A DNA stretch of 64,000 bases from Eledone cirrhosa. Taxonomy: Eukaryota. Positions 3,726-63,192 of the stretch are shown piece by piece. Within the stretch, counting starts at the first letter, position 1, and each line of letters starts with the position of its first letter. The stretch lies in contig OZ024750.1 of assembly GCA_964016885.1 (NCBI GenBank), positions 45,756,001 to 45,820,000 of the forward strand, in the 5' to 3' direction. A program made the translations under genes and the position numbers. The notes beneath the pieces were generated by a model that saw only the letters and a list, made by a program, of their open reading frames with translations, was not told the origin of the DNA and searched no databases.

Positions 3726-4171
<446 letters not shown>

Positions 4172-4179
4172 TTTTTTCC

Positions 4180-4261
<82 letters not shown>

Positions 4262-4263
<2 letters not shown>

Positions 4264-4486
4264 CATCCTCAGTCTATACTGATTAATGTTCAGAGTCATC
4301 CTCAGCATTCTTGTGTAGCACCCATCCACCATCTGAGTGAGTTTCTTGGTCAGTGTCCAAGTCTCAGACCCATACAGCAGCACAGACTCCACTATTGGAG
4401 ACGCAGGACATGGCAGCGATAATGAGGCACAGAGACCGCTGGAGAGAACTCGTCCATGGATCTCGGGAATTTTACCCGCCTTAGAG
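4262..4486. mobile_element. RTE-clade LINE fragment (family R2) with 5' inversion
   Basis: Minus 4262-4393 encodes ESVLLYGSETWTLTKKLTQMVDGCYTRMLR; plus 4395-4486 is the 3' end matching 12833-12925. TA-flanked. Confidence 0.85.
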
Positions 4487-4668
4487 AATATTATATAAGT
4501 ATATATATATATTTTTTTATATGTATATTATTTCATATGAAATATATCACATTGCGGCAAACATCTAAACACATATATCCCTACATTCATATATATATAT
4601 ATTGATGTCATTATTTATGGTACCAATGACACTAATGTCTATGCAGCTTTATATATAAAGATGATATG

Positions 4669-6060: not shown

Positions 6061-6071
6061 ACTATGCATAG

Positions 6072-6582
6072 TAATTGTTTCTACGTTAGGCACAAGGCCA
6101 GCAATAACCGGTGTATTACTGGTACTTTATTTTATCGACCCCGTAAGGATGAAAGGCAAAGTTAACTATGCATAATAATTGTTTTTACTTTTGGCACAAG
6201 GTCAGCAATTACTCAGTACATTACTGGTACTTTATTTTATCGACCCCGTAAGGATGTAAGGCAAAGTTAACCTCGGCGGGATTTGAACTCAGACCATAAA
6301 GGTCCGTAACTCTTTGCTGCAAAGCATGGTGTCCGACCCTCTACCAATACTGCCAATATGGTTTCTACTATGGGCACAAAACCAGTAATCTTTTTTTGGG
6401 GGGGAAGGGGGTTCGATTAAATCGACTCCAGTGCGTGACTGGTACTAATTTTTTATCGACCACGTAAGGATGAAAGACAAAGTTAACGTCAGCGGGATTT
6501 GAACGCAGCACGTAAAGGGCCATAACTCTATGCTGCAAAGTATGGTGTCCGACCCTCTACCGATACGGCCAATCCACCGCCC
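6072..6582 (-). mobile_element. Tandem cluster of three tRNA-derived SINEs (Nin/Deu-type core)
   Basis: Copies ~6072-6168 (truncated), 6177-6356, 6358-6582. B-box GTTCAAATCCC; core gcctttcatccttacggggtcgataaaataaagtaccag. Core-domain name is from memory of invertebrate SINE superfamilies. Confidence 0.9.
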
Positions 6583-7400
6583 TACTTAGAAGTACTAATA
6601 ATAATAATAACAAAATTAATGAAATAAAATATATGGGAGAGGTATGTCAATAATATCAACAATAACAACAATGACAACAATAACAACAACACCTAACTTA
6701 ACAAACAACATTAGTATCAGCCGTAAAATCACAAGTAACAGCTACAACAACAACTAAAAACAAAACAGTATTTACAACAACAATAAGAACAATTACAAAG
6801 AAATTACAAAGAAAGTACACTAAAAACACACAAAAAACACCAAAAACAAAATGAACCAAAAGAAACAAATGAACAAAAAGAGCAAAAAATTAAAACAACA
6901 GCATAAAAAAAGAAAAACATTTAAACGGAACATCGTGAAAAAAATGGCGACGGTGTGGGGAAAAGTTCTGTAAATATAAAGAAAATAAGAAACGGAACGT
7001 TTCATGAAAGATAAAGAATTTAAAATAGAAATCTTCACAATTGTTTGCTAACACGTAATACATCAAAGTGGTTATGTATTTGGGCGAAAATCTTTTGTTG
7101 AACGATTCTACTACAAGTTTATCGTGACAGCTGCAAGAATCGTGTGTACACGATACAGTATTGTCTTGTTTTAAGATGGTCTTGTCCCCTCCATCACCTT
7201 CTCCTAACCTCATGCAGGAAAAACTTTGAGAAACTCTGATAGAAAGGAAAGCAAGGGTGAGGAATCAAATCAGCGAGTGAAAGAGAAAGGGTGCGAGGTG
7301 ACCGTAGAGGAGGAGAGGGAAAGAGGGAGAGAGGGAGAGGGAGAGAGGGAGAGGGAGAGAGGGAGAGAGAGAAATGGAGAAATGGAGAAAGAGGTATGTA

Positions 7401-8192: not shown

Positions 8193-8880
<688 letters not shown>

Positions 8881-9235
8881 CGTGAATGTGTGCGTGTGCG
8901 TATTTTATTTTACTACATTACGCCTGAACCCTGCTAACTTCTACTGAAATGCACACTGAATATGCCAGACATACATAGACACAGACCGTCTCAGAAACAC
9001 ATATAGATAAAGAGATATTGATAAAGACATGCTGATACTAGCAAGGCAATATCTCCTGCAATAATACAGCACAGAAAGAATAACGACCAACAGACAAAAT
9101 ATACCCAGACTAAACAAGGATATCGAACACAAACATTCAAAGGGGGCCCCCATACAAACGGAAACATACGCACACACACACTCATATACTCACATACACA
9201 GACCCCCCCCCCCCCACGCACACACACATACACAT

Positions 9236-9807
9236 CGGAAAAGTTATTTTTCTTAGAGCTATATAATTGTAAGAGACTACATTGAGTTTCTAACTCAGTA
9301 TTTATTTGTCAGCTTCATTATATACAGCTAATTTTAATGTCGTATTAACCATGCTGCTATTTTTAGCGGCATAGGTTTTCGAGACAAGCTAGGCTCTGAA
9401 AACACGTGCGTTATTTCATATCGTACGCAATTTAGTCTACTAATATTTTTAGAAGTGGAAGGATCGCTAACTTCTTGACACCTACTGATAAGCAGAGAAA
9501 TGGTGATGACTTCGCTCAATATGATTTTGCGGGACAGTTTCCATAACTGTCTAGGTGTGTTCAGGCAGTTGCCCAATATAGGTTTGTTATTATTTTTCTT
9601 AATTTACTACCTTAAATTAAGTCAGGCAAACAATATTGCAGTAGTTAGTATGTTTTCACCCTAGCAAAACTAGTCCGTACGATTCGTGCACATGTATGTT
9701 TATATTAGTGTTCATCTCTCTTGTTTATTCAATTATATTACACGGCTCGGAAAAGATTTTTTCTTAGAGCTATTTAATTAAGAGACTACTTTCAGTTTCT
9801 AACTCAA
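9236..9807. mobile_element. Family H: ~510-bp unit with ~60-bp terminal direct repeat
   Basis: tcggaaaag...ttcttagagcta...gtttctaactca at 9236 and 9747. Reverse-orientation relatives at 1411-1565 and ~10002-10038. No HHR recognised. Confidence 0.6.
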
Positions 9808-10060
9808 TATATATATATATATGTATAAATATTTCGTTTCTCCAAAGAAATACGGTTTTAGGAAGCCGTAGCTATGCAAACACCGGGGGGGGGGGGGCCT
9901 AACGCCCTCTGGTCATGTCCAGCAGAAGCAAGGGGGACAACCGTCTATGCATTTGAGGCTTAACTGGCCTTCGACAGGACGATCCTTCCCACAAATATAT
10001 AGTGAGTTAGAAACTCAAAGTGGTCTTTTACAATTAAACATATATAGATATATATATATA

Positions 10061-11026: not shown

Positions 11027-11901
11027 CCAGTAGCACTCGACTATGTATTGAGAAAAGCCCTGGACGAAAACTTAGAGATTTGGTTTCACTCTCACAAAGC
11101 GAAAGTATAGACGCCATGCAGCTCAGAAAATCACCGATGCTGACTATGCGGATGATTTAGCGGTCCTCGCTGACTACCTTAAGGATGCAACATCACTACT
11201 TCACAGCATCGAAGCAGTTGCAAAGGAAATCGGACTCTATGTCAACGCAGGCAAACAGAATATATTTGCCTGAACCAAGACTCCTCAGTAGGTATGCGAA
11301 GTCTAAACGGCGATATAATCAAGCAAGTTGACGACTTCAAATACCTGGGTAGCTATATCGCATCCACAGAACATGATCTTAACATCAGACTGGGAAAAGC
11401 CTGGGGAGCATTGAATGCAATGGAAAAGATATGGAAATCAAACATGCCGGCCAAACTGAAAAGGAAATTCTTCAGAGCTGCTGTAGAATATGTGCTTATT
11501 TATGGCAGTGTCACTTGGACGCTAACGTCGAAACTGGAGAAAAAGCTAGACGGGGCATACACACGTATGCTCCGCGCTGCTTTAAACGTGTCTTGGAGGG
11601 AACACCCAACAAATAAGGATCTCTATGGCAATATACCACTTATCAGCAGGTCAATACGTGGACAGAGACTCAAATTTGCTGGCCACTGTTGGCGCAGCAA
11701 GGAAGGAATAGCAGGTGATGTGTTGTTATGGAGTCCATCTCATGGAGCAAGAAACGCTGGTCGTCCCAAGAAGACATACGTAAAGCAACTTGAGGACGAT
11801 ACTGGATGCACTGCGGAAGAACTGGCAAACGCTATGAGAGACAGAGATGGATGGAGGAAACGTGTCATAGAAAGCCGAGAAAGCTCGACCTGATGATGAT
11901 G

Positions 11902-12572: not shown

Positions 12573-12925
12573 CACCCATCCACCAGAATGCTGAGTATGG
12601 CTCTGAACATTAATCAGTATACACTGAGGATGAAAAACTCAGAGCTGTATGGGAGCATCCCAAAAGTCAGCTCAAAAGAGACACAAAGGAGACTGAGGTT
12701 AACTGGACATGCTCACCGACATCCAGAGTTGACATTGCACTCAGTGCTCCTGTGGGAGCCCCTACATGGACACACTAGAAGCGGAAGACCAAGGTTAACG
12801 TATGTTGATGCCCTAAGGACAGACACTGGTCTGTTGGAGACGCAGGACATGGCAGCGATAATGAGGGAAAGAGACCGTTGGAGAGAACTCGTCCATGGAT
12901 CTCGGGAATTTTACCCGCCTTAGAG
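12566..12925 (+). mobile_element. RTE family R2 3' fragment with 19-bp 5' inversion
   Basis: Encodes RLRLTGHAHRH...LLWEP...GRPRLTYVD. 12566-12584 is the reverse complement of the sequence that immediately precedes 12585 in the element. Confidence 0.88.
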
Positions 12926-14530: not shown

Positions 14531-14723
14531 CCCTAGACACTCATCCCCCTCTCCATTCTTCTGTGACACTAGAGTCCTTCCCATTCCCTCCCTTTTCCTT
14601 TTGTTTCTATTTTCCTCTTATTTCTTTATATTTTCCTATATCACATTCCATCCTTTCTTTACGATCCAAATTTTCTTTTTTTCCTTCATCTATTAAACTG
14701 TATTTACATGATATATTCCATAA

Positions 14724-15662
14724 ATAACTGTTTCTACGTTAGGCACAAGGCCAGCAATTGTCCCAGTCTATTACTGGTACTTTATTTTATCGACCCCGTA
14801 AGGATGAAAGGCAAAGTTAACCTCGGCGGGATTTGAACTCAGAATGGCAAGGGCCGTAACTCTATGTGCCAAAGCATGGCATCCGACACTCTACCAATAC
14901 TGCCAATCCACTGCCTTATATATTCCATAAATAATATTAACAACTTATATTATGTAGAACAACTTATATTATGTAGAAGGGCGGTGGATTGGCAGTATCG
15001 GTAGAGGGTCGGACGCCATGCTTTCCAGCATAGTTACGTCCCTTTACGATCTGAGTTCAAATCCCGCCGAGGTTGACTTTGCCTTTCATCCTTACGGGGT
15101 CGATAAAATAAAGTACCAGTAATGCACTGGGTAATTGCTGGCCTTGTGCCTAAAGTAGAAACAATTATGTAGAAGAATGAAAGTTTAACAGATTGAATTT
15201 AGGTTCTTATTAATACAGGATGTCAGGGCGGTGGATTGGCAGTATCGGTAGATGGTCGGAGGGCATACTGTGTAGCATAGAGTTACGGAGCTTTATGATC
15301 AGAGTTCAAATCCCGTTGAGGTTAACTTTGCTTTTCATCATTACGGGGTCGATAAAATAAAGTACCAGTAATGTACTGGGATAATTGCTGGCTTTGTGCC
15401 AAAAGTAGAAACAACTATTATATAGATAGAAACTAGGCTAGTGGATTGGTAGTATGGGTTGAGGGTCGGACGACATGCTTTGCAGTACAGAGGTACGGCC
15501 CTTTACGTTCTGAGTTCAAATCCCGCCGAGGTTAACTTTAAACTTTACCTTTCATCATTACGGGGTCGATAAAATAAAGTACCAGTCTCGCACTGGAGTC
15601 GATTTAATCGACTTTCCCCTCCTCCAAAATTGCTGGCCTTTTGCCTATATAAGAAACCATTA
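14724..15662. mobile_element. Cluster of four tRNA-derived SINEs
   Basis: 14724-14916 (-, 17-bp TSD atatattccataaataa), 14979-15166 (+, TSD attatgtagaa), 15226-15418 (+), 15436-15662 (+, long-tail variant). Confidence 0.92.
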
Positions 15663-19377: not shown

Positions 19378-19830
19378 TTCTGAATTTGTTTAGCAAGATT
19401 CTTTATCTGAAATCGTGTGTTGAAACCGATATTGTTATACTTTGGGAGGGTCAAACAACCAATCAACCAACAATAAATAAATAAATAAATAAATAAACAA
19501 ATAGATAAATGAACACAAACACACAGAGACACCCGGATGTGGCGCATGCGCAAACTGAGCACACAGCACACACACAGAAACAAAATGGCGTAGGATAGAA
19601 GAAAGGAAAGGCACAGAAACAAAGAAGGAATCCCCAGTCACTGAAGAGGTCACAGAGTGTGTGACGAAAGAACTATGACTATATATAAACAACTATCTGG
19701 TTGTGGAACCAACCAACCAACCAGAAATTTATAAGTTTGTAAATTTATAAATTTATAAATATATAATAAATTGAAGTGAAAGCAACTGGTGCGTGTGTTT
19801 CTTATTGGCAACATGACCCTCCCAAAGTAT

Positions 19831-19837
<7 letters not shown>
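19378..19837 (+). mobile_element. Family B element with inverted 5' cap and intact HHR
   Basis: atattgttatactttgggagggtca (~19429) is inverted relative to the 3' end; TA-flanked. Confidence 0.85.
19636..19680 (+). ncRNA. Minimal type-I hammerhead ribozyme (family B)
   Basis: AGUCA-CUGAAGA-G-GUCACA gagug UGUGAC-GAAA-G aa C-UA-UGACU; 5-bp stem I, 6-bp stem II, CUA site. Confidence 0.78.
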
Positions 19838-20499: not shown

Positions 20500-20950
20500 A
20501 TATATAAATATATATATACAATATTAACAATATTAACAATATTAACAATATACAATAGAGTTTTGCAAGATAAGTCAACATGAATGGATCTGTTATTTTT
20601 ATCTAAAGACATTTTTTCCAATTCCAAATCTATCTATCGTCCGAAACGGCATAGCATATTGTTAATATGTTATCCCTGAAATATATATAATGAAATAAAT
20701 ATGGTTTTATAAATATAGTTTCCATTTATTTAATATTGTAAATATACTCCAAATATTTGTCGAGTGCTTTTATATCAGTTATAAATATTTACTAGTTGTA
20801 ACACAACAATTTAAATATAACTTTCCATAAATATATATATATATATATATATATGAATATATGAATATATATATATATATATATGAATATATGTATATGT
20901 ATATATATATATATGAATATATGAATATATATATATATATGAATATATGA

Positions 20951-21245: not shown

Positions 21246-21347
21246 TAGTCAATTCTTAGATATGCTAGCTCTGTGTTTATAGTGATGATGGTATCAGAGC
21301 CTTGGGACATATGTATATATACATATATATAATATACAACGTAAATA

Positions 21348-21533
21348 TTTGTTTCTACTTTTGGCACAAGGCCAGCAATTATCCAGTACATTACTGGTAC
21401 ATTATTTTATCGACCCCGTAAGGATGAAAGGCAAAGTCGACCTCGGCGGGATTTGAACTCAGAATAGAAAGGGCCGTAACTCTATGCGTCAAAGCATGAC
21501 GTCCGACCCTCTATCGATACTGCAAATCCACCG
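21348..21533 (-). mobile_element. tRNA-derived SINE
   Basis: Same family as 6072-6582. Confidence 0.92.
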
Positions 21534-22427: not shown

Positions 22428-22677
22428 GCAAAAGAGATATTCAATTTGTTGGTAATTCAACAAATATAAATGTTTATAACTGATTCAAAGCACTCGACAG
22501 TTTTTTCTGGAGTATAATATTCAATGATATTAAATAAATGGAAACTATATTTATAAAACCATATTTATTCTATTATATATATTTCAAGGGTACCAACACT
22601 TTGGTACCCTTGAAATATATATAATAGAATAAATATGGTTTTATAAATATAGTTTCCATTTATTTAATATCATTGTA
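22428..22677. mobile_element. Family C fold-back centred on HHR stem II
   Basis: Centre aagggtaccaa-cact-ttggtaccctt (22586-22611) directly abutting GAAA on both strands. Confidence 0.8.
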
Positions 22678-27944: not shown

Positions 27945-28091
27945 CATATATACACACATATACACACACACCCATATATATATATATATATAAGCACTTT
28001 AATACATGAATACACTTACATCTAACTATACACATCAAACATATATATATATTTACTTATTTATATACATTTTCACATATATATACATACT

Positions 28092-28510
28092 TATGGACGT
28101 TTTTAGACACATTCATTATCGCATATTTGTACCTATTCTCATCAGCATATCTTTTCATTATTAGTATGGTAATTTAAGGTTATTAATATATGTTGAAAAG
28201 AGATTGTTTTTATATTTTTCTAACTAGATTAAGGTTTATATAGTTGGGGGATGTCCCTCTTTTATGTAATATTCGGCTTGTAGTGGGAAAAAAGGGTTTT
28301 AGTTCTGTGACGGCAGAATAATGTTCGTTCAATTCTGTTATTCAGCAGTTTCTTCTTGTGTGTGATTATGTAATAAATCTCAAGATTACACAATTTGCAG
28401 AAATTTTGGCTCCTGGAAAAGCTTTGGGTTTTAGCTAATTTATCCCATTTTAGGGTAAACTTTTGATTGCTATCCCTGAGCGTCCAAGCTTTCTCTGCTA
28501 AAGTTGTTAC
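28092..28510 (-). mobile_element. Penelope-like element 3' end (GIY-YIG C-terminus plus decayed HHR)
   Basis: Minus 28510-28285 reads TTLAEKAWTLRD...LKWDKL...CKLCNLEIYYI...LLNNRIE...CRHR. HHR remnant UAUG-CUGAUGA...aAAAC-GUC-CAUA at 28092-28149. Confidence 0.7.
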
Positions 28511-28530
28511 ATATATATATATATATATAT

Positions 28531-29157
28531 ATTGTTCTCCATACAGTAACGGTTAAGCTCACTTGTAATAATTATTTACACGCATCTCACTGTGTAACAC
28601 ACTTCTCTTTGTGTAATATATTTGTATTTGAGCTCAGAAGAAAATTATCTATTCTTCTTTGAGCTAATATTATTATTATTACTGTGAACTGCGGAATACT
28701 CTTAATTCCGATCCTTTCATACTTAACGAGCTCCAAATTGTTGAGCTAATAAATTCGAATGGTTGGGCTGCCCTCTCTAGCATTTTCCCCAATCCATGAG
28801 AGCCGTTATTCGATGCAAATAACACGTGATTTCGCCCTACTCTGGGCAGCGTGTATATTAGCTTTCTCTCTATCCATGAGGTTAGATGTGTCGTGAACAA
28901 AATCCACACTTGGTGACTGAGGAACCTGTGGGATGTTAAACTGCACATTTCTGTGGCGAAACGAACTAGATTCGTATCCACAAGCTTACAATTATAAGGT
29001 TGGTAATTTAAAACTCTACTTCAGAGATTTGATTCTGTCTTAGTTTTTTTCTATTTAATTGCTAACCTGTAGATATTGTTCTCCATACAGTAACGGTTAA
29101 ACGCACTTGTAATAATTCTTTACACACATCTCACTGTGTAACACGTTTCTCTTTGTG
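28531..29157 (+). mobile_element. 544-bp unit with ~83-bp terminal direct repeat and internal HHR, in (TA)n
   Basis: attgttctccatacagtaacggttaa...ctctttgtg at 28531 and 29075. Confidence 0.8.
28909..28984 (+). ncRNA. Type-I hammerhead ribozyme motif
   Basis: CUUGguGA-CUGAGGA-aCC..GGGAUGU(loop)ACAUUUC..GGc-GAAA-CGAA cuaga UUCG-UA-UCcaCAAG. Confidence 0.68.
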
Positions 29158-29217
<60 letters not shown>

Positions 29218-29589
29218 TTCCAGATTAAACATAAAAATGCTAAATACAGAGCCTACAAATACACGCTTACTCACACCTGTTTAGGAATTCTTTATTGGAA
29301 ATTCCAAACAGAGAATTCCTTCAGAAGTGCGTTCATGGAATATATATAGGTTCTCATTGATATGTAAATGTATGTAGTCGTTAGGATAGAGCACCATAAC
29401 TAAGCTCTCCCATACACACACACACATATATATATACATAGACAGACAGACGCACAGGCGCAACGTACATCCACCACCCCGCACACGCACATTGCATAGT
29501 GAATAATGAAACGCAGTGAAAGCAAACAATAAGAACCTTTTCAAATCAACCCTCTTAGCTATATGATTAACTTAAATGGAAAAAGAGTG

Positions 29590-30283: not shown

Positions 30284-30769
30284 TCAGCGAGAATCGCATT
30301 TGGCGGGTAGAAAAAGCGAAACGAAACGCAAAAATCAGAAGTTATGCTTGTAAGCACTCTATAGTTAAAAAAGCAGAGCTAAACAATATGTTAAAACGCC
30401 ATACAAAACTGAAAAAAGTGGTCAAGAAAGCATCAACCACCTAAGCCAAAAAGCACATCAAGCTAAACAGGTCAAAACAAAATAAATGATAATAAACATA
30501 TATATATATATATATTTTTTAAATTTAACACGTATAAAATTTCTTTGGAGGACAGTCTCACAAAAGCAGATGTATTTATCTGAAACCTGCATGACCATAA
30601 TACTACTTACAATGTTATGTCCTGTAGTGTGTTCGATTATACCTTTTCAAAAAATAACCATAATATTATAAATGCGGCAAAAAAGGACAATATTGATTTA
30701 AAGAGAATATTTCTTGAAAACTACAAAATAAAATTATTTCAGTACATGCAAGCATCTCATTATTTCTAA

Positions 30770-31157
30770 GGGCGGTGGATTGGCAGTATTGGTAGTGGAT
30801 CGGACGCCATGCTTTGACGTATAGAATTACGGACCTTGCCATTCTGAGTTCAAATCCCGCCAAGGTTAACTTTGCCTTTCATCCTTACGGGGTCGATAAA
30901 ATAAAGTACCAGTAATGCACTGGGTAATTGCTGGCCTTGTGCCTAACGTAGAAACAATTATTTCTAAGGGCGGTGAATTGGCAGTACCGGTAGAGGGTTG
31001 GACGCCATGCTTTCTAGCATAGTTACGTCCTTTTACAGTCTGAGTTCAAATCCCGCCGAGGTTAACTTTGCCTTTCATCCTTACGGGGTCGATAAAATAA
31101 AGTACCAGTAATGCACTGGGTAATTGCTGGCCTTGTGCCTAAGGTAGAAACAATTAT
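30770..31157 (+). mobile_element. Two head-to-tail tRNA-derived SINEs
   Basis: 30770-30960 and 30968-31157; attatttcta present before, between and after. Confidence 0.92.
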
Positions 31158-31429
31158 TTCTATTTGTTATTTACGTTTCACAACAAAGCGATCAAAAGCT
31201 TACATATTATTTAAATTATATATATATACTTGCTGCGTTTAACCCATTTTTTTTTCTGTAAGAAAATGATGATTGATTTTAAATCAGTGATATAATTTAT
31301 TGAGAAAAATGCAGCATTTCAATATTACTCAATGAAAATTCAATGCATGAAAAATTGGAAAACATTATTTTTTGTAATATATCAAATCAAAATTACATTA
31401 TTAAACCTTATTCTTATTTTGTTTCTTGT

Positions 31430-32238: not shown

Positions 32239-33529
32239 TATAGAAATTACATGAATCAAAATTCTGTTTAAACCATTTATTCGCTTACAATTGTTTCTTC
32301 CAAACCGAGGTTTGGATTCTTCGGAGCAATTTTTCAATGATTTTTTACATACTTGACCTCCTTTCCAACACAAGAGACATACAGAAAATTATGTATATAT
32401 TGATGCACAGTAGGTTGACATCCATTATAATATTATAGCATGGAAATTTACATTCAAAGATTAAAGTCATATTAAAGAACAAAATTAAAGTTAAAATACA
32501 ACATTGGCAGTTTACGAAGATAAAGCAAGAGGATAGTTTGAAGTAGCCTGAGTATGCAGCAGTCACACGTGGGGCATGCACGTGTGTCCTATTTATAGAA
32601 GATTACAGTGCGGCAGGGTGTTACATGTAATACAAGCATTCTAAGCGGGCAATCAAGAGCATCATAGGGGCTGTACTGGTAAAGCATTTTTATCTATATA
32701 TGTATGATATAGAAGCCAGTGTGTAGAGAAACACCAAAAATATTAAAAATGAGAAGCAAAACAACGCCACGGTCCTCGCACACACCACCACTCTCACAAT
32801 CCAGGAAACGCAATTTATAGACTACATGTCCCTCACACAATGCATGATGATTCAACAGTGGATGCCTGATGAACCATGTTAGAACACCACAGCTTGTCGT
32901 TCTCTAATTCGATTCTATGGATTGTGTGAGGGACATGTAGTCTATAAATTGCGTTTCCTGGAATGTGAGAGTGGTGGTGTGTGCGAGGACCGTGGCGTTG
33001 TTTTGCTTCTCATTTTTAATATGTTTGGTGTTTCTCTACACACTGGCTTCTATATCATACATATATATATAAAAAATGCTTTACCAGTACAGCCCCCATG
33101 ATGCTCTTGATTGCCCGCTTAGACTGCTTGTATTACATGTAACACCCTGCCGCACTGTAATCTTGTATAAATAGGACACGCGTGCATGCCCCACGTGTGA
33201 CTGTTGCATACACTGGCTACTTCAAACTATCCTCTTGCTTTATCTTCGTAAACTTGCCAATGTTGTATTTTAATTTTAACTTTAATTTTGTCCTTTAATA
33301 TGACTTTAATCTTTGTATGTAAATTGCCATGCTATATTATTATAATGGATGTCAACCCACTGTGCATCAATATATACATATGTTTCTATATGTCTCTTGT
33401 GTTGGAAAGGAGGTCAAGTATGTAAAAAAATCATTGAAAAATTGCTCCGAAGAATCCAAACCTCGGTTTGGAAGAAACAATTGTAAGCGAATAAATGGTT
33501 TAAACAGAACTTCGATTCATGTAATTTCT

Positions 33530-33532
<3 letters not shown>
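32239..33532. mobile_element. Family E giant fold-back (~605-bp arms, ~70-bp spacer) with outward-reading HHRs
   Basis: Arms ~32239-32845 and 32917-33532 with scattered substitutions; right end abuts (TA)n. Confidence 0.9.
33442..33490 (+). ncRNA. Hammerhead motif with U4C core (family E)
   Basis: UUGCU-CCGAAGA-a-UCCAAACC uc GGUUUGGA-a-GAAA-CAAUUG-UA-AGCGA then AAUAAA; identical mirror on minus at 32281-32329. Confidence 0.75.
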
Positions 33533-33569
<37 letters not shown>

Positions 33570-34737
33570 ATGTATAATAAACAATACAATATAATTACCT
33601 CATTACCAGAGGTTTCCCGAATAAGACGAATACGAAAGAAACGTCTACATTCGTTCGTCGGACGAAGCAATATAAAACATAGTGAAATATTTGGAAAGTC
33701 TCCTCAAGAAATGCAAAAAAAATATATATATATGAATAAAAGTAATGCAACAAATGTATAAAATATATAAAAAAATATAAGGAAATATAGTTAGGTGTGT
33801 GTATATGTATGTATATACACTCACAAATGTACATAAGTAAGCATGTACAAATGCGTGTGTATGGTGAAAATGTGTGCGTAAATATATATATATGAGGGCA
33901 AGTATATTTGTGTATATGTAACCACAAATACGGATATAATATAAGTTGAAAATAAATTGTAAATCTGGTTGACATGTATACATAAACAGGGTGTTAGATA
34001 CATATAAGAATATGAAGGCACGCGTATAAACACACATACACGCGCGATTACTTATATGCGGCAGATAAAGAGGTAAGGGAGTGTAATAGTTAAAAGAAAG
34101 TGTCATTCTCGATATATTTATAAAAATGGAACAATATTTAAATGAAAGAGAATTAACACTAGAGAAGAGAAAAGAAAAGAGAAGAAAAGAAAACAAAACA
34201 AACAAGGTACACAAGTACATACACATATATCTATATATATACATTTATATATATATTTATATATATATATATTTAGAGAGAGAGAGCGACAGAGGGCGAG
34301 AGAGCGAAATAGAGAGAGAGAGAGTGAGAGAGAGCGAAATATAGAGAGAGAGAGTGTGAGAGAGACACAGAGAGAGAGAGGAAGGGGGTTTATAGATTGA
34401 TTCATGCACTGATAGATATGTTTCTTTTATTTGCCACCAGGGCATCAAAAGTGGGACAAGTACAATGGGGGGAGTTTACAAAACAAGGCGTCCTCAATAA
34501 GGAGGAGGCAATAACAATATATAAAAATAAAATAAAATATAACAAAAAATAAAATTTATAACAAAGTCCTCAATAGAGAGGAGGCGCCTTGGGGGGTCGC
34601 ACACACCCCCGAAAAAAGTGTGCAACCCTTCTCCTCAGGAGCACAGAGAAGGGATAGATATATACATATATACATATATTGATATACAGATAGATAGCAT
34701 GATTGACATATACATATACTTACTGCTTCATTATTTA

Positions 34738-35100
34738 GGGCGATGGATTGGCAGTATTGGTAGAGTCGGACGCCATGCTTTGCAGCATAGAGTTACGGCC
34801 CTTTATGATCTGAGTTCAAATCCCACCGAGGTTGACTTTGCCTTTCATCCCTTTGAGGTCGATTAAATAAAGTACCAGTCACGCACTGGGGTCGATTTAA
34901 TCTACTTTCCCCTTCCCCCACATTGCTGGTCTTGTGCCTATATAAGAAACCATTATTTAGATTTCGTCGGCCTTTGCCATTCTGAGTTCAAATCCCGCCG
35001 AGGTTAACTTTGCTTATCATCCTTACGGGGTCGATAATATAAAGAACCAGTAATGTACTGGAATATTTGGTGGCCTTGCGCCAAAAAGTGGAAACAATTA
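34738..35100 (+). mobile_element. Two tRNA-derived SINEs, second 5'-truncated and inserted at the first's 3' end
   Basis: 34738-34955 and 34969-35100; 20-bp TSD attatttagatttcgtcggc at 34952 and 35097. Confidence 0.9.
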
Positions 35101-35277
35101 TTTAGATTTCGTCGGCAATAAAAGCGATATACCGAATACGGCATAAAGTAAAATAAACCATGTTGAGAAGAACTTCAAGATAAATTGTCAAACAGATAAA
35201 ATGAAACCCGGGTAGAAACCGGGGTAGCGAAATATATAGATAGCTGACACTGTTTATGTGGACATTTATGTTAGATT

Positions 35278-35421: not shown

Positions 35422-35563
35422 GCAGAGGTTATATTTAATTTGTTGGGATTCGACAAGCTTAAACATGTTTATAACTGATATAAAGCACTCAACAGTTTAG
35501 TGGAGTAAATATTCAATATATCCTTTCCGGGTATGTCAATATTTATTTAATAAAATAAATCTG

Positions 35564-35629
35564 TATTTTATCTGATGAAAGAGCACCATAATTTGCCTTG
35601 GTTGCCCTTGAAATATATATAATAAAATA
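35564..35629 (+). ncRNA. Type-I hammerhead ribozyme (family C), within element 35421-35670
   Basis: UAUUUUAU-CUGAUGA-AAGaGCACCA(loop)UGGuUGCcCUU-GAAA-UAUAUA-UA-AUAAAAUA; perfect 8-bp stem I. Confidence 0.75.
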
Positions 35630-35663
35630 ATTATTGTTTTATAAATATAGTTTCCATTGATTA

Positions 35664-36831: not shown

Positions 36832-36833
<2 letters not shown>

Positions 36834-37022
36834 AACGAGTAGGACCCCGACGGCTGACCTCAAGCCGTTTCGACGGTTAATTCAGTCCAGAATTAGCCTT
36901 CGAAACAGCTTGAGCTCAGCCGTCGGGGTCCTACTCGTTCTTATTACCCACTCTACTACCCTAAGTATTGACTACTTTGGTGCGTTATGGTCCACCTGGT
37001 TCCTTATCGCATTTCCTTCGTT
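36832..37022 (+). mobile_element. Family A fold-back element
   Basis: Matches 948-1131 with a different centre (aattcagtccagaatt). Confidence 0.88.
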
Positions 37023-37167
37023 ATATATATATATATATATAATTGGAAGGGGTGCATACATACATTTACATACATGTACACACACACAGGCAAACACACA
37101 CAGACACACACACACACGTGTGTGTGTTGTTATATTTGAGAGCGTCATGCTGCAAATTGAACCCTGA

Positions 37168-37449
37168 TCGTTGTTTATATATTGTCAAACTTCTTTCGTC
37201 ACACATTCTCTAACCTCCTCAGTGACTGTTTTCTTTTTATTTTGTGGCGATGAAAGAGATGTGACAATATATAAACAACCATCCGGTTATCGAACCAACC
37301 AACCAACCAACCGGAAATTTATAATAAATTGAAATGAAACCAACAGATGCGTTTGTTTTTATTGGCTGCATGGCTCTCGACAAATATAACAATATCGGTC
37401 TCAACACGTCTTCAGGTAAGATATTTTTAAAAACAAATTCAAAAACGAA

Positions 37450-37450
<1 letters not shown>
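37168..37450. mobile_element. Family B fold-back element, decayed HHR on minus (37184-37226)
   Basis: Homology to 1705-2181; core CUGAGGA. Confidence 0.75.
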
Positions 37451-37506: not shown

Positions 37507-37510
<4 letters not shown>

Positions 37511-37991
37511 AAAGTTCTATTTAAAATTGTTGGGATACAACAAGTAAATATTTTTATAGCTGATATAAAGCACTCGACAAGTATTTGGAGTAGATATACG
37601 ATATTAATAAATGGAAACTATATTTATAAAACCATATTTATTTCATTATACATATTTCAGGGATACCAGATTATATTATGGTATGCCTTCATCAGACAAA
37701 ATACAATATATAACAGTTTTACAAATAGGTTTGACGTACCCTTTAAAATACAACCATTACTTTTGGAGGCTGCCTAATTGTAAAACTGTTATATATTGTA
37801 TTTTGTCTGATGAAGGCATACCATAATTTAATCTGGTATCCCTGAAATATGTATAATGAAATAAATATGGTTTTAAAAATATAGTTTCCAATTATTAATG
37901 TCGTATATCTACTCCAAAAATTTGTCGAGTGCTTTATATCAGCTATAAAAATATTTACTTGTTGTATCCCAACAATTTTAAATAGAACTTT

Positions 37992-37995
<4 letters not shown>
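37507..37995. mobile_element. Family C symmetric fold-back (223-bp arms, 43-bp spacer) with two HHRs
   Basis: Arms 37507-37729/37773-37995, TA-flanked on both sides. Confidence 0.9.
37801..37861 (+). ncRNA. Type-I hammerhead ribozyme (family C)
   Basis: UUUUGU-CUGAUGA-AGGcAUACCA(loop)UGGUAUcCCU-GAAA-U augu A-UA-AUGAAA; mirror on minus 37641-37701. Confidence 0.78.
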
Positions 37996-38429: not shown

Positions 38430-38489
<60 letters not shown>

Positions 38490-38568
38490 AGATGAGCGGA
38501 ACAAGCAAAATTCAAACAATATTGCAAAAAATTCAAAAAATAGAATTTAAATATTTATCTATCCATAT

Positions 38569-38649
38569 TGCTTTTACCGACGGTTTCACCTCACAAAATA
38601 TTGGAAATCCGATGGACATCCAATGGAAAGTTCGGCTCTTCAGAAAGCA
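38569..38649 (-). ncRNA. Type-I hammerhead ribozyme (family F, downstream copy)
   Basis: Minus: UGCUUU-CUGAAGA-GCC(...)GGU-GAAA-CCG u CGG-UA-AAAGCA. Confidence 0.8.
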
Positions 38650-39064
38650 TTTTCCCTTACATAGGACATATAGTCCCATAGCCGGCAAATATATTTCCTT
38701 CAGCCAGCTAGTGCAGGATCTAATGGGGCCATACATGTGACCTACACGTGAACTGGTCGATAGTAGAAGCGGGAGTAGCATAGACGTGTTATTTGCCACA
38801 CTACTAAAAATAGTAGCTAGGTATATAACGGATTTTTTCTCTACACATGAGAGAATATACATAAGATGAGATCAATATCCCCACAGCTACTAAGTGCACT
38901 CGGAAATATATAGGGTGTCTATGATAATATGATACAGTTTTTGTTCAATGGTATTAATTTGATATACCCGAACTGTAATATTGAGATGAGTGGAACAAGC
39001 AAAGTTCAAACAATATTTCAAAATATATAAAAAAATGTAATTTAAATATTTATCTATCCATATT

Positions 39065-39143
39065 GCTTTTACCGACGGTTTCGCCTCATAAAAGATTGGA
39101 AATCCGAGGGACTTCCAATGGAAAGTTCGGCTCTTCAGAAAGC
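39065..39143 (-). ncRNA. Type-I hammerhead ribozyme (family F, upstream copy)
   Basis: Minus: GCUUU-CUGAAGA-GCC(...)GGC-GAAA-CCG u CGG-UA-AAAGC. Confidence 0.82.
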
Positions 39144-39243
39144 CTTTTCCCTTACATAGGACATATAGTCCCATAGCCGGCAAATATATTGCCTTCAGCC
39201 AGCTAGTGCAGGATCGAATGGAGCCATAACTGTGAACTATATA

Positions 39244-40097: not shown

Positions 40098-40143
<46 letters not shown>

Positions 40144-40144
40144 T

Positions 40145-40937
40145 CTATATACAAACAGACTCCCATTCTTACCTCGACTTCATCTCCTCCAATCAAACCC
40201 ACACCAAACACTTCATACCCTATTCCCAATTCCTCCGTCTTCGTCGGCTCTGTAGCTAGGACGACGATTTCGAAACCTATTCCCTCCACATGGCTTCCTC
40301 CTTCATCCATCGTGGATATCCCCCCCCCCCACTCTGATCTCACCTGCGCCCGTGAAACAGACCGTACCACAGCGCCCTCCTCAACTCCACCTTCCCAACA
40401 CCCGCGTTCCTTTCCCTATCTCCGACCTCTCCCACTCTGGGGACATACCTCCATTCCTTTCGCACCCTCTCTTCTGACCCTGTCACTTCTCGCTTTTTTC
40501 CAAACCCACCCATTACTGCTTTTAAGCGCGCCCGCAACCACCGCGACCTCCTGGTACGTAGTTTCTTCTCGTCCTCTCCTACGACTCCAACCGGCTCTCA
40601 TCCTTATACGCGTCCCCGCTGCAACACTTGTTCCTTTATTTCCACCCTCATCACTCTCATATGCCCCAACGGGTCTTTCCGTATCCGGCACTCTTTCATC
40701 TGCACCACCACCCACGGTGTCTATGCCCTCTGGTGTTCCCTTTGCGGTTCTTTATACATCGGACAAACGGGGCGCCGTATGGCATTTCAGGGACATACAA
40801 ATCGGTTTGGATACTCCTGCTGACCGTTGTTTCTGTTCTCCTGGTCATTCTTCCCTTCATGTCACAGGCCTCGCGTACCAGGACTGAACAGAGTCTGATT
40901 CTCCACCTTGGCTCCTATTCCACTCTTGGACTCAACT
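40145..40937 (+). pseudogene. Penelope-like retroelement (Neptune-like): RT thumb, Cys linker, GIY-YIG endonuclease; decayed
   Basis: YLDF...IPYSQFLRLRRLCS; RPRCNTC; VYALWCSLCGSLYIGQTGR (40719-40775); EQSLILHLG...GLN. Stops and frameshifts; 5' end truncated at (TA)n. Confidence 0.88.
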
Positions 40938-41196
40938 CACCTCCCCAATTTCTTTAATACCCCGTCCATTATCACACCCCTAGATTCCTATCGCTCCCTC
41001 ATGATCATAAACATCTTCTCAACTAATACACACCGACTAAATATGCACACTCCATTTTTCCCTTCACTGCTCTGTATACACGCATACACACTCTTATATT
41101 AACATACTTTTTTCTCATAGCTTCGTACTTACATGCACACACACTCTTTTACTTACATATACACACACATTTCTTCTTAGCTTCATACGGACGTAT

Positions 41197-41236
<40 letters not shown>

Positions 41237-41480
41237 ACATACACACACACACACACACACACCCACACACACACATACACACTAGACACCTGCACAAGTG
41301 TAGCTCTTTTTACAAAATGTTTTTTTTTTCCATTTCAGGTAGACGCTCTGAATCATCCACTTTTCTAAAAAAATATATCATACACAAAACGCCAGCACCA
41401 ACAGTTTTCCAATTCCATGAAGACATTTTTTTCCAATTCCAACGCGTCCGCCCCCTCGAGCTATCTTACCTCTCACTCTT

Positions 41481-41516
41481 TCTTCTGATGAAGGACTAGC
41501 GCCAGAAACGTTAAGA
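41481..41516 (+). ncRNA. Minimal PLE hammerhead in the 3' region of the Neptune-like element
   Basis: UCUU-CUGAUGA-aGG acuagcg CCa-GAAACGUU-AAGA; element ends at (TA)n ~41592. Confidence 0.7.
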
Positions 41517-41709
41517 CCCTCTTCCTGCTATATCAAGCGTTAACCTAATATATTCCTACCGATCGTGTTGTTATTTCTATTTACCTTTTAAATATATATA
41601 TATATATATATAATCAAAATTTCAAGTTATTAATAATGCAGTGATAATATATCGTCATGTTAGAGATGAACAGCGTACGTGTAGGTTTGCTCAACGTGTA
41701 GGTTTGCTC

Positions 41710-44499: not shown

Positions 44500-44810
44500 T
44501 ATATATATATTTATATATATGAAATGAAATTTGAATTATGTGAAATACAGAAAATATCGAAAAAGTTAAGGGATTCAACTTCTAATTTTAATTTTTTTTT
44601 TAAATATTTTTTTTAGTATTCTTTCACAATTTCAAATAAATTTTCTAAGTTTTGCTACATCTGGAAAAGGTGTAAATATTAGCGTGAGGAAGCTTCTGTT
44701 TGACAACTGTCAAATCATTTTCAGTTACGTGAATGATAGAAATGACACAACGAAACGTGCATATAATCTTAGTATCTGTTGAGAAAATAAATAAACTAAT
44801 GTTTTTACAG

Positions 44811-44953
44811 CTTTTCAGCATAGTTACGTCCCTTTACGGTCTGAGTTCAAATCCCACCGAGATTAACTTTGCCTTTCATCCTTACGGGGTCGATAAAATA
44901 AAGTACCACTCATGCACTGGGTAATTGCTGGCCTTGTGCCAAAAGAAACAATT
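44811..44953 (+). mobile_element. 5'-truncated tRNA-derived SINE
   Basis: B-box and core as in other copies. Confidence 0.88.
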
Positions 44954-45072
44954 AGTTCTTTTGCTTCAATTGGTGCGTTAACGAAGGTTGACCGTGATGA
45001 GAGAGTGAGACAACAAACCACAAGATTATCCTTTTGAGGTACCATAGTATGTTTCTATCTATCTATACCTGC

Positions 45073-45491
<419 letters not shown>

Positions 45492-45681
45492 CAACGAGTA
45501 GGACCCCGACGACTGAGCTCAAGCAGTTTCGACGGCTAATTCCGTCCAGAATTAGCCGTCGAAACGGCTTGAGCTCAACCGTCGGGGTCCTACTCGTTCC
45601 TATTACCCACTCTACTACCCTAAGTATTGAGTACTTTGGTGCGTTATGGTCCATCTGGTTCCTTACCACATTTCCTTCGTT
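45492..45681 (+). mobile_element. Family A fold-back element
   Basis: Matches 948-1131; centre aattccgtccagaatt. Confidence 0.88.
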
Positions 45682-45848: not shown

Positions 45849-45999
45849 TCTTGATGCTACGAAGCAGATTTTCCTATAGGAAAAAGAGAAAGTGCGTATC
45901 ACCACACTCTTACGCCTGTTAAATTCTGAGCTCCGTATGTATGCATAATATATAAATGAAATGAATGAGGTCCATTGATCAGCTGTGAACAACTTCCAG

Positions 46000-47427
46000 G
46001 AGAGACAGTTACAACCTACAGCTTGGTACTTTACTATGATAATTTAGTGAGAGGTACACCCTACAACTTGGTACTCTAGTATAACCTCTGTAGTGAGAGT
46101 TACAACCTACAACTTGGTACTCTAGTATACCCTCTGTAGTGAGAGTTACCATCTACAACTTGGTACTCTAGTATAACCTCTGTAGTGAGAGTTACAGCCT
46201 GCAACTAGGTACTCTAGTCTAACCTCTGTAGTGAGAGTTACAACCTACAACTTGGTACTCTAGTATAACCTCTGTATGGAGAGTTACAACCTACAACTTG
46301 GTACTCTAGTATAACCTCTGTATGGAGAGTTACAACCTACAACTTGGTACTCTAGTATAACCTCTATAGTGAGAGTTACCATCTACAACTTGGTACTCTA
46401 GTATAACCTCTATAGTGAGAGTTACCATCTACAACTTGGTCCTCTAGTATAACCTCTGTAGTGAGAGTTACAACCTGCAACTAGGTACTCTAGTCTAACC
46501 TCTGTAGTGAGAGTTACAACCTACAACTTGGTACTCTAGTATAACCTCTGTATGGAGAGTTACAACCTACAACTTGGTACTCTAGTATAACCTCTGTATG
46601 GAGAGTTACAACCTACAACTTGGTACTCTAGTATAATCTCTATAGTGAGAGTTACCATCTACAACTTGGTACTCTAGAATAACCTCCGTAGTGTGAGTTT
46701 CAACCTACAACTTGGTACCCTAGTATGACCTCTGTAGGAAAAGTTACAACCTGCAGCTTGGTACTCTAGTATAACTTGTGTAGGGAGAGTTGCAACCTAC
46801 AGCTTGGTACCCTAGTATAACCTCTGTAGGAAAAGTTACAACCTGCAGCTTGGTACTCTAGTATAACCTGTGTAGGGAGAGTTACAACCTGCAGCTTGGT
46901 ACTCTTATATAACCTGTGTATGGAGAGTTACAACCTACAACTTGGTACTCTAGTATAACCTGTGTAGGGAGAGTTGCAACCTACAGCTTGGTACTCTAGT
47001 ATAACCTGTGTAGGGAGAGTTGCAACCTACAGCTTGGTACTCTAGTATAACCTCTGTAGTGAGAGTTACAACCTACAGCTTGGTACCTTAGTATAACCTT
47101 TGTAGGAAGAGTTACAACCTGCAGCTTGGTACTCTAGTATAACCTGTGTATGGAGATATACAACCTACAACTTGGTACTCTAGTATAACCTGTGTAGGGA
47201 GAGTTGCAACCTACAGCTTGGTACTCTAGTATAACCTCTGTAGGAAGAGTTACAACCTGCAGCTTGGTACTCTAGTATAACCTGTGTAGGGAGAGTTGCA
47301 ACCTACAGCTTGGTACTCTAGTATAACCTCTGTAGTGAGAGTTCAAACCCACAGCTTGGTACCCTCGTATAACCTCTGTAGTGAGAGTTACAACCTACAA
47401 CTTGGTACTCTAGTATAACCTCTGTAC
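46000..47427. repeat. 46-bp minisatellite, ~31 copies
   Basis: gagagttacaacctacaacttggtactctagtataacctctgtagt; unit starts 46095, 46141, 46187... Confidence 0.96.
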
Positions 47428-49800: not shown

Positions 49801-50687
49801 CATATATACATACATTCATTTATATTATCTATGAATATAACACGTTCTAATTTACAATAGGATGTAGTAAGTGAATCATTAGTGATTGCAGGTAAGTAAT
49901 GTGGAGTTCTTGATCAAATCTTCCTCCAATTTATATATATCGCCTAACGCTATTTTAAAAATATATCATTATCTTGACATACCATCATGTGGGGGATATC
50001 AATTCATACACTCACTCTTCAGGATTAGATTGACTCAGAGGTGTAATTTCAAATGATATTATAATTTTGATGATATAATTATCTTTATTATGATATAAAA
50101 AAAGTTGATTCAAATAGAGTAGAAAATATGAATTATTTAATTTACTGTTATTTAGTTCCGAGTTCAAATATCTGCGTGGTTGGTTCTTCCTGGGGAAATC
50201 TATCTTAGCACGTCCCATAAAACATGTAGCGGCTGATGACACCTTCTTTCCCCATCTTTATGTGTCTTCACCTTATTTTATAATCTATTTCATAACATCT
50301 CCGTGCATAAGCAGCATTGTTTTTATTAAATTTATCCCCTCAACGCTTCGTAAATGTCCGAGAAATCAACTACATATACATGCCAAATAACACCCCTCTG
50401 TCATTAAAATATAACCACGGGAATTGTTTAAATGTTATAGTCTAATAAAATGTGTACATCATTTCGTATGGTTTTCTTTTCACGGTAGCTTTCGATCTCG
50501 AAGCAATCGATTAATTAGCAGCAGTGTTGAAATGGAATCTCCGTCTGTTTTGATAACGAGAGTTACGATTTCTTTATCAATGGAAATCCTTGCTCCTGAA
50601 AGTAAAGTGTAAGAGAGCAATAATTCTACAGATACCTCTGACCTTCGCGTAATACTATGGAAGACTTAGCTGGCTTAAGTATTTTTG

Positions 50688-51040
50688 GCACATATACCCG
50701 CCTCATAATGAGAGTGCAAAACCTATCCTGGAAACGACATCCCACCTTGTCTAAAATCTATGGCAAACTCCCTCGAGCCTCTGCCCTTCTAAAATCCCGG
50801 AGAGCTCAATTTACTGGCCACTGTCACTTTGCCAGCAATGAAATCATATCCGTTCTCTTGCTCTGGAACCCTGACTCCAGCCTGACTAGGAGTAGGAAGC
50901 TGTCATATCCTGACGTTATCTCTAGGGATACGGGAATCAGCAGACAAGACCTGGGGGCAGCGATGGGGGACGGTGGATTCTGGGGCATGAGAGTGAGATC
51001 CATCATCTCGACAGTAGTCGACGAGTGGTGATGATGATGA
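50688..51040 (+). pseudogene. RTE-clade LINE 3' fragment (family R3)
   Basis: GTYTRLIMRVQNLSWKRHPT...RRAQFTGHC...LLWNP; (TGA)n tail. Confidence 0.88.
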
Positions 51041-56931: not shown

Positions 56932-57597
56932 TATATGTATGTAGGTATGTGTGTACGTATGTATGTATTTACGTGTGAATGTATGCATGTATGTATGCAT
57001 GTATGTGTGAACATATGTATGTTTATGTAATTATGTATGCATGTATGTGTGAACGTATGTATGTTTCTGTGCGTATGCATGTGTATGTGTTTCTTTGTAT
57101 GTATGTATGTATGCATATGCGAATATATATATGCTTGTGTGTAAGCATGTATGTATTTATGTATGTATGTAAGTATGTGTAAGCATGTATGTATATGTAT
57201 GCATGTATGTATATATGACTGTATATATGTTTGGGTGTATGCATGTATGTATTTATGTATGTATGTATGAACGTTTGTATGTATGTTTGCGTGTGTGTAT
57301 ATATGTATGTATGTTTGTATGTATGTATGTGTGTATCTATATATGCATATATATTATATTTGTAATGAATCTTCATGTCTCCAAATACGCAATACAAAAT
57401 AGATAATATGTAAGCTTATTAGTCTATATATATGTTTAAATACACCATTCGGAACCCAATTTATCTGTATGTGTATAGCCATATACATATACATATATAT
57501 GTATATATATATATATATGTGTGTGTGTATATATGTATGTGTGTGTGTGTGTGTGAGTGTGTTTGTGTGTGTGTGCATATATATATATATATATATA

Positions 57598-59396: not shown

Positions 59397-60011
59397 TAAG
59401 TATGTACACGTACATACATATATGTATACAGACGTACAGTAGTATGTATATATATATACATACATGCACACATATATATATATGCACGTATCGATTCACC
59501 GAACATTTATTATAATGCTCGGTGTGTTTGTAAACAGACATCCCGTATTAAGCCGTAGTGTCTAGCAACCACGGTTGCTCGTTTGTTCAACACTGACAAA
59601 GGAACGCTGTACTAGTTTCAAGCTTATTAGCTATCGTCAGCAACGTATACCTTCGTGCCAGATTGTTGAAGTATATACGTTCAACAATCTTTCACGAAGG
59701 TATACGTTGCTGACGATAGCTAACAAGCTTGAAACTAGTACAGCGTTCCTTTGTCAGTGTTGAACAAACGAGCAACCGTGGTTGCTAGACACTACGGCTT
59801 AATACGGGATGTCTGTTTACAAACACACCGAGTATTATAATAAATGTTCGGTGAATCCATACGTGCATATATATATATGTGTGCATGTATGTATATATAT
59901 ATACATACTACTGTACGTCTGTATACATATATGTATGTACGTGTACATACTTATATTTAAGTAACAGCCGTACTAAGAGTGGGAAATGAGATATCGTTTC
60001 ATTTTTTCCGT
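59397..60011. mobile_element. Family D fold-back (~275-bp arms, 9-nt spacer) with two HHRs
   Basis: Arms ~59394-59670/59680-59956, then family tail and (TA)n. Confidence 0.9.
59704..59746 (+). ncRNA. Minimal type-I hammerhead ribozyme (family D)
   Basis: ACGUUG-CUGACGA-u-AGCU aaca AGCU-u-GAAA-CUAG-UA-CAGCGU; palindromic stem III ACUAGU; mirror on minus 59604-59646. Confidence 0.8.
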
Positions 60012-62720: not shown

Positions 62721-62793
62721 TTCATTCTGACGATTGAAGGCAGACTTCTATACCAAGCTCCTCTGTGTCTTCGTGAAACCTTTAGTAAATGAA
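62721..62793 (+). ncRNA. Type-I hammerhead ribozyme (singleton family)
   Basis: UUCAUU-CUGACGA-uUGAAGGCA(...)UGUCUUCGu-GAAA-C cuuua G-UA-AAUGAA; perfect 6-bp stem I, GUA site. Confidence 0.78.
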
Positions 62794-63135: not shown

Positions 63136-63147
63136 TGTTCTGGCCTG

Positions 63148-63192
<45 letters not shown>

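Follow-up and report, generated by a model that had tools for sequence, protein, structure and literature searches.

Anatomy of the locus

The sequence analysed, referred to below as the window, is a stretch of 64,000 nucleotides from Eledone cirrhosa that consists of microsatellite-rich, AT-rich DNA with fragments resembling eukaryotic retrotransposons. A non-coding unit of 544 nt with a hammerhead motif lies between two TA tracts, next to the remnant of a Penelope-like element. The features of this locus are the following (window coordinates).

28086-28510 (-): putative Hydra-clade Penelope-like 3' end, 5'-truncated, not part of the unit
28511-28532 (no strand): left (TA)11 tract, 22 nt, on which the adjacent Penelope remnant also has its 5' end
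28533-28614 (+): upstream terminal-repeat copy, a 5'-truncated extra 0.15 unit, pseudo-LTR-like
28615-29158 (+): a complete, non-coding unit of 544 nt whose sense strand has many local hairpins
28616-28621 (+): ATATAT directly 3' of the internal copy of the 3' end, matching the right TA tract past one mismatch
28885-28949 (+): predicted competing helix, 28885-28899 with 28934-28949
28909-28984 (+): type I hammerhead motif, core intact, helix III of 5 bp, helices I and II mismatched
29077-29158 (+): downstream repeat copy and 3' end of the insertion, its last part forming two predicted hairpins
29159-29216 (no strand): right (TA)29 tract, 58 nt

The direct repeat at the ends of the insertion (28533-28614 versus 29077-29158) is identical at 76 of its 82 positions and has a period of 544 nt; the insertion as a whole measures 1.151 units. 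The initial annotation had reported a repeat of about 83 bp at 28531 and 29075, and both positions fall within the ambiguous edge of the repeat, where the match runs 4 nt further to the left (28529-28532) over letters common to the TA tract. These last 4 nt of the left (TA)11 tract also match the unit and constitute a microhomology at the 5' junction. The annotation had also described (TA)n on both sides; the start and the end of the repeat are indeed both 0 nt from a TA tract. Two of the six differences between the repeat copies fall at CpG sites, and their divergence of 7% is within the range of other paired arms in the window (92% identity for the repeats of family B, 89% for family E and 90-97% for inverted pairs). 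The ATATAT at 28616-28621 is a candidate for a priming microhomology or for the vestige of a former target. At the 3' end, the first of the two predicted hairpins (approximately 29119-29140) exposes an AC-rich loop in the computed fold.

The unit has a GC content of 36.8%. It shows no coding trace, no trace of the Hydra endonuclease in a motif census and no reading frame for a reverse transcriptase (RT) plus GIY-YIG protein. Its one frame above 100 amino acids, 113 amino acids on the minus strand, gave no Pfam match and no homologue and was taken as a chance frame. No tRNA gene is present in the window. The folding of the unit is more stable than expected (z -3.5; none of 100 shuffles was equally stable), and it is more structured than 18 of 19 control segments, each evaluated with 12 shuffles, the exception being a palindrome. 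The RNA is predicted to be 58% paired and branched. A fold specific to a circle was considered and rejected, as circularisation adds no stability (-128 kcal/mol for circular versus -133 kcal/mol for linear folding).

No second copy of the unit was found in the 64-kb window, and no match in prokaryotic genomes (for one exact 22-nt pattern), phages or plasmids, collections that hold no animal genomes and whose negatives carry little weight. Comparison with 14 other element loci of the window revealed no similarity (28 strand comparisons; best z 2.8, reached by 1 of 100 shuffles), in a procedure whose positive control scored 433 versus 55. The unit was presumably mobile.

A probably decayed type I hammerhead

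The hammerhead that had been annotated at 28909-28984 proved to be placed exactly for a type I topology on the plus strand. Its core comprises CUGAGGA (28917-28923) and GAAA (28958-28961); helix III has 5 bp and a 5-nt loop, and the GUA site predicts cleavage after 28976, 182 nt upstream of the 3' end of the insertion. In helix I, 6 of 8 positions are paired, and a 2x2 mismatch close to the core interrupts it after just 2 bp. Helix II closes with an A.C pair in place of the conserved G-C and continues with 2 bp and a 3x3 loop; the G10.1-C11.1 pair is highly conserved in hammerheads (PMC4209133). Like the ribozymes of the other hammerhead elements in the window, it belongs to the sense strand and has an internal position relative to the 3' end.

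Applied to the whole window at its gathering threshold, Rfam gave no hit of any kind; at E<=10, 28400-29300 yielded no hammerhead but 10 other matches, which were mostly TA-driven and were discarded. Rfam is evidently insensitive to these motifs, since a strict hammerhead descriptor finds 10 other motifs in the window (against 1 in 30 shuffled windows) where Rfam finds none. The strict descriptor misses the motif at 28909-28984. A relaxed descriptor, devised after this motif had been seen, recovers it; the same descriptor matched none of 20000 shuffles of the unit with a helix III of at least 5 bp and 61 of 20000 with at least 2 bp, and, when 60 whole windows were shuffled in blocks, it matched 7 times by chance, a rate of about 0.12 per 64 kb.

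The isolated motif folds no better than shuffled sequences (z 0.28). The active hammerhead fold is predicted to lie 3.9 kcal/mol above the minimum, a measure that was discarded as a test of activity because six comparison motifs (0.9-8.1 kcal/mol) span this value. The predicted competing helix, together with pairing of 28952-28956 and 28978-28982, would sequester helices I and II of the ribozyme; these competing pairings have mean pair probabilities of 0.77-0.93 per helix in the circular ensemble, which the competing helix is predicted to dominate. At a decay of approximately 3.5% per copy, as read from the repeats, two or three changes are expected in the 76-nt motif, and such decay would suffice for the three mismatches at the hammerhead core. 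Judged from its sequence, the motif is a real ribozyme, but probably an inactive one.

The upstream Penelope remnant

The element on the other side of the (TA)11 tract comprises 82 open codons from a GIY-YIG C-terminus (28510 to 28262), followed by a 3' untranslated region and a decayed minimal hammerhead with its core from 28145. A full HMMER search with this frame yielded 589 homologues at E<=0.001, and Pfam, a word-indexed search and Atlas did not detect it. The remnant frame shows the C-terminal endonuclease motifs CxxC, E, N and CxH; the linker and the RT are absent from the remnant. Among 150 homologues, CxxC..E occurs in 146 and CxH in 140, and 20 of the 47 long homologues carry a CxCX4-6C linker; the GIY-YIG domain was detected only in 3 of 16, below the Pfam cut-off, and in Atlas clusters at 26-60%. 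The Hydra clade is described as targeting (TA)n and bearing canonical hammerheads, with CxxC, E, N, CxH and a cysteine linker defining its endonuclease (PMC8557442). By these motifs, 28086-28510 is assigned to the Hydra clade on its sequence.

The unit and the Hydra remnant are arranged head-to-head, with both 5' ends abutting the 22-nt (TA)11 tract and both 3' ends pointing outward. No similarity was found between the unit and either this remnant or the second coding remnant of the window, a Neptune-like 3' end described below. A 21-nt match that might have connected the unit with the Hydra remnant was rejected (wrong relative orientation, E 1.4, z 0.7 against shuffles). Independent insertion into the same TA tract is the simpler reading, since the two elements have no sequence in common. 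The clade of the neighbouring remnant is a candidate helper for the unit.

Other elements of the window

The window contains 139 merged TA tracts. Terminal direct repeats were flagged in four of 81 TA-bounded segments of 150-2500 nt, of which 57133-57346 is of low complexity and was excluded from the count. The three remaining redundant segments all carry a type I hammerhead: the unit, 38486-39237 (two hammerheads) and 9235-9806 (decayed). The probability of this coincidence is 0.004-0.013, given 14-20 hammerhead segments among the 81 as counted by hand. With a relative of the second segment, the elements of this build other than the unit are the following.

9235-9806 (+): element whose unit measures about 510 nt and whose terminal repeat spans 63 bp; its type I hammerhead is decayed
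38486-39237 (-): family B, 495-nt unit, copy of 1.52 units with two hammerheads 495 nt apart
8327-8818 (-): family B relative, 1.02 units, about 71% identity

Expressed in units, the four loci measure 1.02 (8327-8818), 1.12 (9235-9806), 1.15 (the unit described here) and 1.52 (38486-39237), and none of them reaches 2. In all three families the internal copy is followed by TA-like letters. The element at 9235-9806 has its hammerhead core at 9485, a cut after 9551, a helix I of 7 bp and a helix III of 6 bp; its 5' flank is CA-rich rather than TA. It is probably the family F of the initial annotation, which left that family undefined. It comes closest to what was described, with 1.12 units, a period of about 510 nt and a 63-bp repeat, and it shows no similarity to the unit. 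The repeats of 38486-39237 are 92% identical. Both copies of family B sit in (TA)n and have the same 3' end, 87 and 89 nt past the cut site; the 3' end of this family is fixed and the 5' end variable. In the wider comparison of distances from cut to 3' end, the cleavage positions of the Hydra remnant, the Neptune-like end and family A are estimates, and the entries at 19641 and 35572 ended at internal TA runs.

The recurrence of this build bears on the repeat itself. A local duplication unrelated to the element ends is contradicted by the coincidence of the repeat with both TA junctions and by the same build in unrelated hammerhead families. The repeat is supported as a feature of the element ends that arose from copying more than one unit, because two unrelated hammerhead elements in the window are built alike. 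A ribozyme-bearing tandem, with at least two consecutive units and a complete hammerhead in each, is absent from the locus, which has 1.15 units and one ribozyme. With only one ribozyme it cannot release a circle or monomer; it is no active retrozyme locus and at most a monomer derivative. The family B copy at 38486-39237, with its two ribozymes, could have released a monomer and is the best candidate for a circle source in the window.

Further hammerhead-like sequences were observed. A hammerhead-core family with inverted arrangements (1705-2179, 19379-19834, 37100-37450 and 62913-63590) has two alternative 3' ends separated by about 60 nt, which recalls the Penelope tail. Head-to-head inverted pairs at TA tracts occur at 37508-37994, 59484-59866, 35422-35663, 20648-20824, 22428-22675 and 45138-45359; in the first two, each arm bears a type I hammerhead of minimal form, and the arms are 91% and 97% identical. 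Such head-to-head pairs are an arrangement known for Penelope-like elements (PMC8557442). Single descriptor matches were found at 62727-62787 (+) and 45843-45762 (-), the second by the loose descriptor only, and short pieces of the 3' end of the element at 9235-9806 recur at 1413-1483 and 9991-10036.

A frameshifted remnant at 40142-41591 (+) has a cysteine linker and a GIY-YIG-like motif, beyond which come the core of a minimal hammerhead, at 41485, and (TA)n. We take it to be a Neptune-type Penelope 3' end; its frame at 40356-40820 gave no Pfam match and no homologue. SINE-like copies of about 200 nt, many of them in tandem or inverted, form an abundant family (6061-6586, 14721-15662, 21342-21533, 30757-31165, 34728-35109, 44810-44962) that is similar to an octopus SINE, and in its SINE and repeat content the window is like an octopus genome. 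Frames at 11183-11893 (+), 4126-4527 (-), 12573-12923 (+), 50642-51031 (+) and 60303-61347 (-) are in our view comparable to the C-terminal portions of non-LTR retrotransposons of the RTE and R4/Dong types. The window further holds a 1.3-kb inverted repeat (32239-33532), a minisatellite with a 46-bp period (45987-47426) and a dispersed palindrome-ended family in TA tracts (948-1130, with copies at 36832-37021 and 45493-45680).

Proposed origin and alternative explanations

The locus is best read as a dispersed, decayed daughter copy of a non-autonomous, retrozyme-like element of Penelope type with a type I hammerhead (probability roughly 0.8). Its anatomy and the recurrence of that anatomy in other families are read directly from the DNA; the steps that would produce such a copy we infer as follows. 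A source locus elsewhere, with more than one unit, would be transcribed, and the RT/GIY-YIG protein of an autonomous Penelope-like element would bind the RNA in trans and nick a (TA)n tract. Reverse transcription would begin inside the RNA at a fixed position, 182 nt past the ribozyme cut and next to a short UA-rich stretch. One whole unit and a further 82-86 nt would be copied before the other end of the target is joined at the 4-nt TA microhomology, and later decay would amount to approximately 3-4% per repeat. Several observations weigh against this reading: the unit occurs once in the window, it resembles neither the Hydra remnant nor the Neptune-like 3' end, Rfam and the strict descriptor miss its ribozyme, and 9235-9806 has a CA-rich 5' flank.

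The template must have been uncleaved or re-ligated, since the cDNA spans the cut site. The most likely template is an uncleaved tandem transcript, to which about even odds may be given; a ribozyme-made circle comes next as a possible but less probable template, and a template jump between molecules last, as a rather improbable one; all three would leave the same traces at this locus. Internal initiation on an uncleaved linear tandem transcript has been demonstrated in vitro for a Penelope element (PMC11167929). In the same study, Frangieh et al. found unprocessed RNA to be the dominant substrate in vitro, ribozyme mutants that still insert, and initiation inside an AC-rich stem-loop that lies downstream of the ribozyme and lacks homology to the target (PMC11167929). 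This last point does not fit the priming by UA microhomology proposed here, and the likeness between the AC-loop hairpin predicted at the 3' end of the unit and that stem-loop is a lead only. Partial tandems, tails and non-autonomous elements that form pseudo-LTRs (pLTRs) are known among Penelope-like elements (PMC8557442), and retrozymes have been described as derived from pLTRs, with monomer derivatives (10.64898/2026.07.22.740005).

The initial annotation had proposed either read-through of more than one round of a circular template or a partial tandem pLTR. Copying past one unit stands; the locus is compatible with a circle and with a partial tandem, and the two are not mutually exclusive, as Cervera and de la Pena (2014) put forward circular templates for the very purpose of accounting for partial tandems (PMC4209133). 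In the version with a circle, double self-cleavage of a dimer would release a 544-nt monomer, a host ligase would circularise it and the RT would travel 1.15 rounds. This tentative reading, clearly less probable than its negation, agrees with a cDNA that crosses the cut site, with the length of more than one unit at all four loci, with the two ribozymes 495 nt apart in 38486-39237 and with a helix III predicted to be stable enough for monomeric cleavage; the unit is also more structured than shuffles and 18 of the 19 control segments, and related circular RNAs have been demonstrated in coral, mussel and axolotl (PMC7229834). However, circular folding brings no gain for the 58% paired, branched RNA, 6 of the 82 repeat positions are not identical, none of the four loci comprises two units or more, and in vitro the ribozyme mutants left insertion unchanged, while the cut site was neither the start nor the end of any read (PMC11167929). 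Together with the single decayed ribozyme, the folding, the repeat differences and the missing loci of at least two units (n=4) mean that nothing at the locus favours a circle.

Three other explanations depart further from the retrozyme-like daughter copy. Tailed, truncated copies are the commonest Penelope remnants (PMC8557442, 10.64898/2026.07.22.740005) and several occur in the window, in line with a reading of the unit as a 5'-truncated pseudo-LTR region of an autonomous Penelope-like element instead of an independent one; this is unlikely, as the sequence closes on itself at 544 nt without a coding trace, unlike the Hydra and Neptune-like remnants, which run directly into coding sequence, and its 82-bp repeat exceeds the described tail of 30-40 bp (PMC8557442). 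It is slightly less likely still that unit and Hydra remnant record one composite event, in which the same Hydra protein primed both target ends on two RNAs. The two 5' ends on the same 22-nt TA tract and the outward 3' ends do recall the inverted pairs of the window, but a TA tract separates the elements, they have no common sequence, and adjacency is expected from 139 merged TA tracts and many insertions. Least probable by far is a local segmental duplication or assembly artefact with a chance hammerhead-like motif. The single copy in the window, the imperfect ribozyme and the rate of about 0.12 chance motifs per shuffled window would be compatible with it; against it, the repeat ends exactly on both TA junctions, a divergence of 7% between its copies is not that of an assembly duplication, two unrelated families show this build together with hammerheads, and 0 of 20000 unit shuffles match.

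A more general and speculative extension, to which we give low odds, is that several unrelated, dispersed (TA)n-targeted hammerhead units of about 500 nt are copied by a Penelope RT that primes on a UA stretch in a ribozyme-made circle and overruns its start, hence always more than one unit. If the circle reading were true, genome-wide copy lengths and repeat identities would provide direct evidence, from the genome itself, that target-primed reverse transcription can be templated on circles, which is as yet only a proposal in the literature examined, and the competing helix would be an evolved switch that protects the circle rather than a product of decay.

Significance

The element class and both candidate mechanisms have been published, and a single decayed copy is unsurprising. 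Three unrelated families in 64 kb, with a fixed 3' end and a variable overrun, provide a test system, and the whole genome should offer enough copies to distinguish circular from uncleaved tandem templates and to identify the autonomous clade that moves them. In Octopus vulgaris, 31 recently active Penelope-like families have been described, and the word "ribozyme" does not occur in the accessible part of that text (PMC13282606). No description of such units in octopus was found in the literature covered, a coverage that stops short of most subscription journals, Repbase and Dfam.

Comparison with known systems

Like the animal non-LTR retrozymes (PMC7229834; 10.64898/2026.07.22.740005), the unit is non-coding and of low GC content (<50%) and carries a type I hammerhead; its RNA is predicted to be self-paired at 58%. 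It lies alongside Penelope-like elements, as they do, and its 544 nt fall within the 51-972 bp given in the preprint by Li et al. 2026 (10.64898/2026.07.22.740005), although they exceed the 150-450 bp of animal retrozymes stated by Cervera and de la Pena 2020 (PMC7229834). Unlike these retrozymes, the unit is not a tandem array, with 1.15 units, one ribozyme and mismatched helices, and its position in (TA)n leaves no target-site duplication readable. The preprint, whose sample by its text is without a mollusc, also describes dispersed monomer derivatives (10.64898/2026.07.22.740005), and the unit fits this description. Circular retrozyme RNAs have been demonstrated in three animals (PMC7229834).

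The pLTR insertions of Penelope-like elements, including the non-autonomous MRC1 and the (TA)n-targeting Hydra elements, likewise show a complete unit preceded by a 5'-truncated copy, a sense hammerhead near the 3' end and a microsatellite target (PMC8557442). The unit differs from them in the absence of an RT/endonuclease frame and of detected similarity to an autonomous partner among the two coding remnants of the window, and in a ribozyme that lies outside the repeated part. With PAc, a Poseidon element from Anolis (Frangieh et al., 2024; PMC11167929), it has in common an insertion 3' end downstream of the cut site and near an AC-rich stem-loop, as well as an AT-rich target. PAc is autonomous and starts approximately 85-92 nt past the cut, inside the stem-loop and without target homology (PMC11167929), whereas the end of the unit lies 182 nt past the cut, where it borders on TA-like letters and is about 18 nt further on than the AC-rich hairpin.

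Plant LTR retrozymes are also non-coding, with direct terminal repeats and a hammerhead (PMC7229834; 10.64898/2026.07.22.740005). Their ribozymes are of type III and lie inside both LTRs, and they possess a PBS/PPT and 4-bp duplications (PMC7229834; 10.64898/2026.07.22.740005); the single type I ribozyme of the unit lies outside the repeats. The locus displays the marks of a non-autonomous Penelope-like element, namely a pLTR partial tandem, a sense hammerhead internal to the 3' end and a (TA)n target. The unit works like an animal non-LTR retrozyme or a non-autonomous Penelope-like element, and is neither an autonomous element nor a plant LTR retrozyme.
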